This document shows, piece after piece, positions 57,001-64,000 of a DNA stretch of 64,000 nt. Numbering within the stretch: position 1 is the first letter of the stretch; every line of letters starts with the position of its first letter. The stretch is from Candidatus Woesebacteria bacterium RIFCSPLOWO2_01_FULL_39_23. Lineage in GTDB: Bacteria > Patescibacteriota > Microgenomatia > UBA8517. A program made the position numbers. Location of the stretch: the NCBI GenBank assembly GCA_001793095.1, contig MGHG01000012.1, positions 8,647 to 72,646 on the forward strand, given 5' to 3'.

Positions 57001-60000
57001 GTAGTGAGATGATATTAGGTTATGGTAAATATAAATGCAAGACGTAGGTTTGGGATTTAGAACTAGGTTCGGAATTACTAGTCCTTTCTTTGCTGAAATA
57101 CAAAATGTTTAGGACGCGATACATTTCGGACTATAGACACAATTGTAAATTTAAATTGGTGGAGTATATACTAATTTATAGAACATGGACGAGTTAGGTA
57201 AGGATGGGATTTTGAATATTGTTTCTTCGGAGAAAGATGATGGTTTAGATTCTTCGTCAAATGCCCAAAATGGTAAATTAAACTTTTTAAGAAAAATTTT
57301 TAAACGTAAATCTGTTAAAGCCATTTTTGTTTTGGCATTCTTTTTATTCAGTATTGTATCTCTTTGGTCAGCCAGAAAAACACTTGCTAAAGTTGCTAAT
57401 GAACTTGGTATTTACCGTGCTATCCGAGCGACAGGAATCGCAGGAAAAAGTGTTCCTGGATATTTCGAAGCTCTGACCAGCCAGAATCTTTTGTATGATT
57501 ATAATAGTGATGGCGTGGTCAGCGGGGAGGATTATTCTTCCGTTGTTGCTGCAAGCCAAAGGGCGAAAATTACTCCCACCCCAACTCTCTCGGTTACACC
57601 GATACCTACTATGGCACCTCCGGGAGAAGAGCAAATTCTTGTCGGGGATAACCCCGCTACTGCTCAAGATTTAGTCCTTCCCTCGACCAGATCCTTCGGG
57701 ACAGACACTTTCAATGGTGCGGCGACGGTATCCTATCCGATCGAAATACCACCTTATAAAGCAAACCTTTCACCCGGTCTTGCTTTGTCATATTCTTCTG
57801 CCACAGTTGATGGTCTTTATACGGGAACGAAAACCAAGTGGAGAAACGATGCTAATCATCCCTACCAAAGGCAAGCCGGAATTTTCGGTTTGGGGTGGAA
57901 TATGGCTTTTGGGGGAGAGATTGTCAGAGATACTAACGGTACATTTGATGATACAGCTGACGATAAATTTATCCTCGCTTTTTCCGGAGGGTCGGCTAAT
58001 TTACTCAAAGAAAGCGGGGATGATATATATAGTGTTTGGAGAACGGTTCCGAATCTGAATCTCAAAATTGAACGTTATGGGCGCTGTTATGTTCATGCAT
58101 ATAGCGGCGGCTCAATGAATATTTGCAGGTATTTATGGATTATTACCGATGGAGTTGGAACTAAATCTTATTTCGGCTATCCAAGTACGGTTGATAATTG
58201 GCATAGGACTAATGATCCCGATAACAGTTATTTTGGCGAGGGATCCGGGAAAGACTGGTATCCTTTGCTTTCTGCCGATGGAACTGAAGGTTATACGTCG
58301 TGGTTAATCTATGGTTCGACGAAAAAAGGTTATCATGCCCTAACTACCAGGTGGCTCCTTTATCAGTCTGAGAGTATTTACGATCAAGGCGAACCTCCCT
58401 GCGGAGGCTGCGAAGTAGAAGTAAATTACCGCTACCTGTTTGAGTTGGGAGACAGCCATAACGGCACGAAATATGTTAAAGCAGAGTACCCATTGAATCT
58501 TACTTACGGTAACCAAAAAGTTACTTTTGAAAGAGAAACACGGTTTGATACCCAAACGCACGTTGGTGATAATACCGGCGGAGAACAAAAGGAGGTAAGT
58601 AATGACAGGATAAAGAAAATAGTTGTCAGATCGCTGGATAAAACACTCAGGGTTTATAAGTTCGAGTATATTTACGGTTGGGATCCAGGGAAGCACCATG
58701 ATAATAATGGAAACGGCATTCCGGAATCTGGCGAGATTGTCGGAGGCCAGGTGGTTCATTCTCTTCTAAATAAAATTACAGTTTACACAGATGAGACTGA
58801 AAATTCCCTTAGACGCTTACCCTCCTATGTGTTCTCGTACGGGAACGACTGCTCGACTTTTAAGGGTGGTTGTCCATTGACAGCATATACTTCAGATCAG
58901 GTTGATACACAAGCTCGAACAGCAAATGACTTCTTTCTTGTTACAGCCGACAATGGTTTCAAAGGTAAGGTAACTTATGAGTACTACGAGAGTGGTGGAA
59001 GTAACGCATTGGAGGTTAAATACTGCGATCCGGATAAGGCGGATCGTAATGGTAATACCGATTGCAGACAAAACCACGCTTTTAATACTCAGAGACACCG
59101 AATTCAGGCAGTAATTACGGACGATGGGATAGGAAATACTGTTAGGACTGAATATAACTATACCGGAGCCGGAGCTACGCTCGGACTGGCTTATGTCAAG
59201 GGTTATGGCGAGGAATGGTATGACGGCCAAAACTGCTGCGTTGTTAAAGATGCAATCTGCCAGTCGGGAAATCCTTCCGGTTGCAAATGTCCTGGAAGCT
59301 CAAATACTTGCTATCAGGGTGGGGAATGGGATTGCGCGGGAGGAACGCAGTGTGGTTGGGATGATGTGACAGGAGGTTTATGCTGTCCCACCGATCTTCC
59401 TAATGCTTATTCCTACCGATGTCTGGACGGAAGGGATGGTAATAGATATCGATGCTCGACAGCTAATCCAAATGTAACCTGCTATTCAAACTGTAAGTAC
59501 CGATCGAGCCCCTTTACTGGTTATGAGTTCTTGGGTTACCCTGAAGTTGAGACAATTGTCTATGAGAAAGGATCGGATAGTGAAGTTGCTGCAAAGAGTT
59601 GGACGCAGTATTATCAAGCGCTCGATACCGCCTCCTGCTTCAAGCCCAGCCCCCTTAAGGGTACGCTAAAGGCGAGTAAAAATTACGATGCAGGTAACAC
59701 ATCGAAGTATGCTCTGGTGGAGGAAGGGTATACTGTAAGATTTGGAACTGAGGGGGGTTATACCTATGTAGCGGATTCAGACCTGAACACTAATTGCAGC
59801 ACATATGATCCCGAGGTAAGTGTAGCTTTAGTCCAACAAACCAGAACCTATGCAAGAAGTTATTATCCCTCTCCCTCACTTTGTACTTTGAAAACTACCT
59901 CATATAACACCGATAAATATGCCCTGCCTTATGAGGTCAAGGATTGGGGAGAAGTTGACTGCAGCACTTGGACGATAGATATAGCAGATGGTACAAGGAT

Positions 60001-63000: not shown

Positions 63001-64000
63001 TGGAGGTATTTTGGGAGCCGATGCTAAATGCCAAACACTCGCTTCCGCCGCTGGTCTTCAGGGCGAGTATAGGTCATGGGTATCAACAAACACAATAAAT
63101 GCGAAAGACAGGATACCTGACGCAAAGTTTGTTTTAGTTGACGGAGCAACAATTGTGGCAGACAACAAAGCAGATTTAATAGATGGCGCAATTGATAATA
63201 GTATTAATAAGGATGAAGGGGGAGTAGTAAGGTCAGGTAGAGTGTTTACAGGAACCCGGGAAGACGGAACCAAACACACAAATACCTGCAACAATTGGAC
63301 TGATGGAAGCTCTGGTTATACGTATCGCTTCGGAAATACGACCTATACTAATACCTACTGGACGTCGGGAGGAAATGTTTCCTGCAACCAGACAGGTCGG
63401 CTTTACTGTTTCCAAACGACTCAGTATATTGTTCCCTCCCCACCACCGCCTACACCGACTTCTCTTCCAACGCCAACACCTAATTATACTGTGGTAGGGA
63501 ATTACCAATCAGGCAGCAATTGCAATACTTTATGTTCTAATAATGGAAAATCATGCACTTCGGTAGGAACCGATACCTATGGCACGAACTTACTCTATGC
63601 CTATTGGTCCGGAACGTATTGTAGCTACCCTTCGGCAAGTTGCTCGACAGTCATGACAAATGAGGCGGTGGTGGACTGCGGCGGTCACTCTCCACTGTGG
63701 ACTAACTGCCGGTGTATTAACCCCAGCCCGACGCCAACGCCTACGAAAATACCAATATAAATATGAAAAATTATTTTAATTTCAGAAAGATAATAAAATA
63801 TATCTTGCCGGTAATATTAATAATAGGATTAGTTGCGGGGGTTATCCTCGTTCAGCAAAAACAACTCTTCAGAAAAAGAGCTGCAAACTTTCCTGCAACT
63901 TCACTCTATTATATTCATTCAGATAACCTGGGTAGTACAAGTATGGTAACTGACGACACAGGTACTGTAGTTTCAAGACAAACATATTATCCGTATGGAA

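Follow-up and report, generated by a model that had tools for sequence, protein, structure and literature searches.

Genes at the locus

We observed that the last part of the 64-kb window (the whole stretch of DNA analysed, from a member of the Woesebacteria) is occupied by one very large gene, here called the giant, and by the start of a second gene on the same strand (Table 1). The ORF list and the translation confirmed the giant as a real open reading frame, as the first-pass annotation had it. An identical protein occurs in independent samples, on 24 contigs or more, and the databases annotate the proteins only as hypothetical or 'YD-shell domain-containing'. We found no tRNA genes in the window, and a scan for promoters and terminators upstream of the giant gene gave nothing above chance.

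Table 1. Features of the giant gene and of the partner gene that follows it
Feature	Position	Strand	Basis or remark
Giant ORF, 2191 aa, proposed shell subunit of a split Rhs/Tc-BC-like system	57185..63760	+	ORF list and translation
N-tail, aa 1-45, predicted cytoplasmic; charged, without Cys, Pro or Thr	57185..57319	+	composition by region; topology inferred
Single TM / signal-anchor segment, aa 46-63, AIFVLAFFLFSIVSLWSA	57320..57373	+	Kyte-Doolittle
Stalk, aa 64-165: dockerin/EF-hand-like loop and PT-rich stretch	57374..57679	+
Dockerin/EF-hand-like stalk loop, aa 105-117, DYNSDGVVSGEDY	57497-57535	+	motif by eye; conserved in family alignment A1
TcB/SpvB-like N-half of cocoon, aa 166-1000	57680..60184	+
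Variable Cys-rich insertion within N-half, aa 684-774	59234..59506	+	alignment A1; pLDDT < 45
YD-repeat C-half of cocoon, aa 1001-1785, last residues ...WRKNYFFSGKLAAVRV	60185..62539	+	RHS_repeat, AF2, Foldseek
C-terminal tail, aa 1786-2191 (about 407 aa)	62540..63757	+	Pfam, NCBIfam, module self-comparison, composition
PT linkers of tail, aa 1791-1804, aa 1901-1922 and aa 2084-2093; PT end after module B		+	composition by region
Cys-rich module A, aa 1805-1898	62597-62878	+
DUF1554 endostatin/lectin-like domain, aa 1922-2079	62948-63421	+	Pfam
Cys-rich module B, aa 2100-2181	63482-63727	+
Partner gene, 5' end (79 codons in window)	63763..64000	+	ATG 2 nt after the giant's TAA stop; runs past window end
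Full partner gene, 431 aa	L001:16579-17874		hydrophobic signal/anchor, RHS-associated core, DPTG↓R, 282-aa variable C-terminal domain

The N-terminal membrane anchor that had been claimed for the giant was borne out by the hydropathy profile, in which Kyte-Doolittle windows exceeded 1.6 at aa 42-65 only. The sequence after this segment holds no AxA-type cleavage site. The stalk loop gave no Pfam match. In the N-half we observed an SpvB-type motif (aa 176-242) and two family-specific motifs, EFLGYPEV (aa 781) and CFKPSPLKG (aa 818). Whole-protein Pfam and NCBIfam scans missed SpvB, and scanning by segment gave a sub-threshold match to the SpvB/TcB N-terminal domain (PF03534). The Cys-rich insertion of this half occurs in some relatives (it is missing from P0003, P0004, P0007 and P0010). 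The YD repeats described earlier were detected in the C-half by profile scans (RHS_repeat, PF05593, E 1.2e-32 in 9 stretches; TIGR01643, E 1.2e-17).

The shell ends with '...GKLAAVR', the last shell strand, just ahead of where an RHS-associated core would start, and this end aligns with the point at which fused relatives run on into YxHxDHLGS. The core profile itself (TIGR03696), which the first-pass annotation had listed for a profile search as Rhs_assc_core, had no match in the giant at E<=1 (it was found in the adjacent gene), and the giant's sequence contains no HxDxLGS, YYNARYY or DPxG motif. A variable C-terminal toxin domain after a core is also absent from the giant; PT linkers, a DUF1554 domain and two Cys-rich modules make up its C-terminus.

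This tail had been missing from the earlier description. Its DUF1554 domain (PF07588) scored 47.1 bits (E 2.7e-12) against a cut-off of 27.5, over aa 1933-2053 and profile positions 2-134 of 136, and the NCBIfam LenA/LenB family matched the tail at E 2.6e-5. The two Cys-rich modules are 36% identical to each other (E 1e-7). Tail length varies between 2 and 407 aa across the family, and the binding domains differ.

Predicted fold of the giant

We observed that the AF2 model of aa 1007-1790 had pLDDT values mostly above 90, and Foldseek returned TcdB2-TccC3 as the top match for the C-half (E 1e-33). An RHS-type beta-shell, as had been predicted, was thus recovered. For both halves of the giant the best structural matches were TcB and TcB-TcC. 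The fold of the C-half model resembles Rhs, Tc and teneurin shells, with teneurins scoring below Tc proteins in the fold searches (TMq <=0.30). The tail gave no usable model (pLDDT about 25), as the alignment contained no tail homologues. When PDB sequences were searched by phmmer, the giant matched filovirus GP1 only; these matches were spurious and arose through the low-complexity tail, and a family profile was used in place of phmmer for the PDB comparison.

TcdB_toxin_midN/midC are used as indicator domains of TcB (PMC7861908). Neither these domains, which had been listed earlier for a profile search, nor FG-GAP repeats (PF12256, PF12255, PF01839, PF13517) matched any segment of the giant at E<=10. 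The model contains no run of short propeller strands that would form a beta-propeller, and there was no profile match in the giant to NHL or Tox-GHH. A TcA-like pore component, also named earlier as something to look for, was found neither in the window nor beside those relatives whose called genes we examined. The other giant ORFs of the window, considered as TcA candidates, were an alpha-2-macroglobulin-like protein and an intein-containing UvrD/AddA-type helicase. Of the earlier assignment of the giant as Tc-BC-like/RHS, the YD half-shell and the Tc-like fold stood, while the core, the cleavage site and the presumed toxin lie in the next gene.

Base composition and origin

The giant gene is GC-richer than its surroundings, as had been judged by eye (0.438-0.439 vs 0.377). 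The excess sits in codon position 2 (0.461, z 2.7), GC3 being ordinary (0.385 vs 0.345+-0.041), and the GC content expected from the amino-acid composition (0.429) is close to that observed (0.439, z 0.87). Synonymous codon usage is as native as that of other giant genes, and the close homologues of the giant are all from Patescibacteria. Horizontal acquisition, which the earlier reading had drawn from the GC content, is therefore not supported.

The partner gene carries the core and the putative cargo

We observed that the core of the partner protein corresponds to a plug with an aspartyl protease (TIGR03696, 76.2 bits, E 2.1e-21), that it starts a few residues after the hydrophobic leader, and that the protein contains no YD repeats. 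It aligns with the core end of TccC3 (E 9e-15), with D125 and D146 placed opposite the catalytic D651 and D674, and D125, D146, P147 and G149 are invariant across 9 small proteins of this kind. The partner thus has the two Asp residues and the DPxG motif of an Rhs/TcC aspartyl autoprotease, and is a predicted member of that class. The small protein of the window and that of L010 have no clear AxA site, and may stay membrane-anchored.

The cores of the small proteins are 52-84% identical, while their C-terminal domains (211-282 aa) are not alignable between paralogues. Such variation is a hallmark of polymorphic toxins. For comparison, the hypervariable regions of TcC measure 201-400 aa (PMC7861908). 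Pfam gave nothing above threshold for nine of these cargo domains, so that their toxicity is only assumed; weak matches were to Transglut_core, DUF553 and NAT (E 0.002-0.25). The C-terminal domain of the partner shows an HExxH motif by eye. This motif and the NlpC/P60-like and transglutaminase/papain-like features of the cargo domains, being by-eye motifs or weak matches, serve only as leads.

The split recurs at a fixed position

A core-less giant with same-strand, signal-bearing small genes was found at about ten independent loci of Patescibacteria (the window locus, L003, L004/L012, L005, L010, L020, L028, L029/L034, L033 and L063), each with 1-4 small 'core+toxin' genes in tandem. The locus scan used family alignment A1, as alignment A2 was too divergent. 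Fused relatives, with the core in cis, exist beside the split forms. They read 'AVR-(4-12 aa)-YxHxDHLGS', and the corresponding stretch of the small proteins is 'signal peptide AxA↓(4-5 aa)-YxHxDHLGS', so that the cut falls in one fixed loop at all paired loci. In L034 the giant is tail-less, ends at its stop codon after '...GKLVAVRKK' and overlaps the small gene via ATGA; giant and small gene are often translationally coupled. Split and fused giants conserve the last shell strands equally well, which points to a constraint on the shell end. L009 has a fused giant adjoined by a small signal-bearing gene, so such genes can also accompany a giant that has its core.

No immunity genes were seen at the split loci: the tandem gaps of L005 are 23-61 nt, and the 370-nt gap of L004 contains no ORF. 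At the window locus, the partner gene is followed by a DUF6922/AbiEii pair. Full-text literature searches found no paper tying Patescibacteria, CPR or Microgenomates to Rhs/Tc toxins, no use of the phrase 'split Rhs', and no description of the split arrangement.

A proposed split cocoon and its alternatives

Taken on balance, we consider it somewhat probable that a toxin cocoon of the Rhs/Tc-BC type is naturally split between two genes in this member of the Woesebacteria (Microgenomates, Patescibacteria), with the giant as its shell subunit. We infer that giant and small protein assemble in trans. Sec would export both, and on the outer side of the membrane the anchored shell would be completed and plugged by beta-strand addition from the small protein's core; this would place the cargo C-terminal domain within the shell cavity, and the core would then cleave at DPTG↓R. 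On host or competitor cells, the tail of the giant may recognise a carbohydrate or a protein. A single shell could accept alternative cargo subunits, as one TcB pairs with several TcC. The targets may lie outside the producer's own kind, as suggested by the absence of immunity genes. Against this reading, we know of no case in which a shell folding outside the membrane takes up unfolded cargo, the assembly of TcB with TcC being cytoplasmic.

The two genes may also be independent, with the giant an empty, teneurin-like YD-shell adhesin that binds a host through its DUF1554/Cys tail, the small genes Sec-secreted toxins or pro-toxins in which the Rhs core is only a self-cleaving pro-domain, and the adjacency a legacy of descent from a fused Rhs protein. 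We rate this as unlikely, yet worth serious weight. Teneurin shells, which are among the Foldseek matches, need neither cleavage nor the release of a cargo to function. The modules of the tail are of a kind typically used for binding outside the cell and are fused elsewhere to pilins, dockerins and CBMs, and both the variety of tails and the small gene beside the fused giant of L009 would fit. Several features argue against independence. The cut falls in the identical loop everywhere, with the mature N-terminus of the small protein 4-5 residues before the first core strand, and in some pairs the stop and start codons overlap or lie 2 nt apart. The L034 giant lacks any tail, and the last shell strands are still conserved in split giants. 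Moreover, the core of about 100 aa consists of strands that are packed inside the shell in solved Rhs/Tc structures, and would thus be unlikely to fold alone.

Toxin-cassette arrays downstream of rhs genes are a known pattern (PMC3482391), and the small genes could be silent 'orphan' cassettes displaced from a main rhs gene, forming a recombination reservoir for a giant that is the main gene without its tip. This appears distinctly improbable. A metagenome scan did reveal, in a sister lineage, arrays of true orphan-like ORFs that start with the last shell strands (...KNYYFSGKLVAVKDNS...; L036, L041, L026), and between paralogous small genes the DNA is 82-99% identical in the core alone, a pattern that favours a shuffling of cassettes within this set of genes. 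Against displacement from the giant, the small genes come with a start codon and an AxA signal peptide of their own (37 ORFs of the sample), toxin-immunity pairing is lacking (as in the short gaps of L005), and the giant offers no core that could be replaced. Blastn of small genes against giants gave no match; with no shared DNA as a substrate, recombination with the giant is disfavoured.

That the giant is the BC part of a canonical tripartite Tc toxin, horizontally acquired and with TcA encoded elsewhere in the genome, is suggested by the structural matches of both halves and by the raised GC, but is very improbable and largely refuted by the lack of TcdB_toxin_midN/midC or an FG-GAP propeller (the TcA-docking element), the lack of a TcA-like gene in the window and the examined flanks, the N-terminal membrane anchor, the native codon usage with a GC excess derived from amino-acid composition, and homologues confined to Patescibacteria.

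Returning to the split cocoon, a broader picture can be drawn, which we offer tentatively and with less confidence than the assignment of the giant itself. Patescibacteria of the Microgenomates group might possess a modular Rhs cocoon assembled extracellularly, in which an anchored TcB-like shell with a lectin-like tip is loaded after Sec export with interchangeable 'plug-protease-toxin' subunits from tandem genes; it might act as a contact-dependent weapon or host-manipulation device without immunity proteins, TcA or T6SS. The toxin of Rhs/Tc cocoons is thought to be enclosed because shell and cargo form one chain, or two chains co-folding in the cytoplasm. If our reading is true, the enclosure of cargo by an Rhs cocoon can take place in trans and away from the cytoplasm, and a separately exported plug-protease-cargo protein, if real, would mean cocoon completion in trans. 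Such a 'one shell, many cargoes' design would bear on the engineering of Tc/Rhs containers. To our knowledge, CPR bacteria lack a T6SS, and hardly any of their effectors have been characterised. The anchored shell, the lectin-like tip and the arsenal of peptidase-like domains without immunity genes would offer a testable candidate for how these small-genome bacteria attach to and act on other cells.

Comparison with known systems

In the Tc cocoon TcB-TcC (YenB/YenC2, TcdB2-TccC3; PDB 4igl, 4o9x, 6h6e) the two chains are split mid-shell, whereas the split here lies just before the core. The cargo subunits here are correspondingly of 340-433 aa (431 aa for the window partner, without a YD half-shell), against 851-1050 aa for TcC (PMC7861908). 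Here the shell is membrane-anchored and has a tail of binding modules, the cargo has its own Sec signal, and no beta-propeller, TcdB_mid or TcA was found.

The system resembles the T6SS Rhs toxins (RhsA 7q97, Tse5 8cp6, Tse15 8uxt, RhsP 8h8a) in its YD shell, its RHS-associated core, its predicted aspartyl autoproteolysis and its variable C-terminal domains, the presumed toxins, and in both, toxin modules are arrayed by the main gene. Each T6SS protein is one chain that bears a PAAR, VgrG or clade N-domain, with immunity genes next to it and leaderless orphans; here there is no T6SS context and no immunity gene, every module has a leader, and the main gene is core-less. The giant thus falls outside the single-chain Rhs polymorphic toxins, in which the core with DPxG(L) and the toxin domain are in the same protein, and the cognate immunity gene that directly follows a polymorphic toxin was not found.

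WapA of B. subtilis (and of S. suis) is a Sec-exported, wall-associated Rhs toxin of monoderm bacteria, made as one polypeptide with its own core and toxin and accompanied by a cognate immunity gene. Sec-dependent export of a YD-repeat toxin, attachment to the producer's surface and action on neighbour cells would be common to both (they are proposed here), and such attachment fits an envelope without an outer membrane. Unlike the window system, WapA has no TcB/SpvB-like half and is unsplit.

Teneurins and bacterial teneurin-like proteins (6fb3, 9ifo) share with the predicted topology of the giant a type II anchor, an extracellular YD shell and extra domains displayed outside it. Teneurins are adhesion molecules with the core and C-terminal domain in cis, unlike the giant, whose fold similarity to them is lower. 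Of the teneurin features, the giant has the TM anchor, and neither FN-plug, NHL propeller nor the Tox-GHH of the teneurin C-terminal ABD/Tox-GHH domain was detected in it.

The tail domain resembles the DUF1554/LenA-LenB endostatin-like domain above the Pfam cut-off. Elsewhere, DUF1554 relatives occur in fusions with pilin, dockerin, cohesin, CBM96 or PKD modules; here the module stands at the end of an Rhs shell, between two copies of an uncharacterised Cys-rich module.

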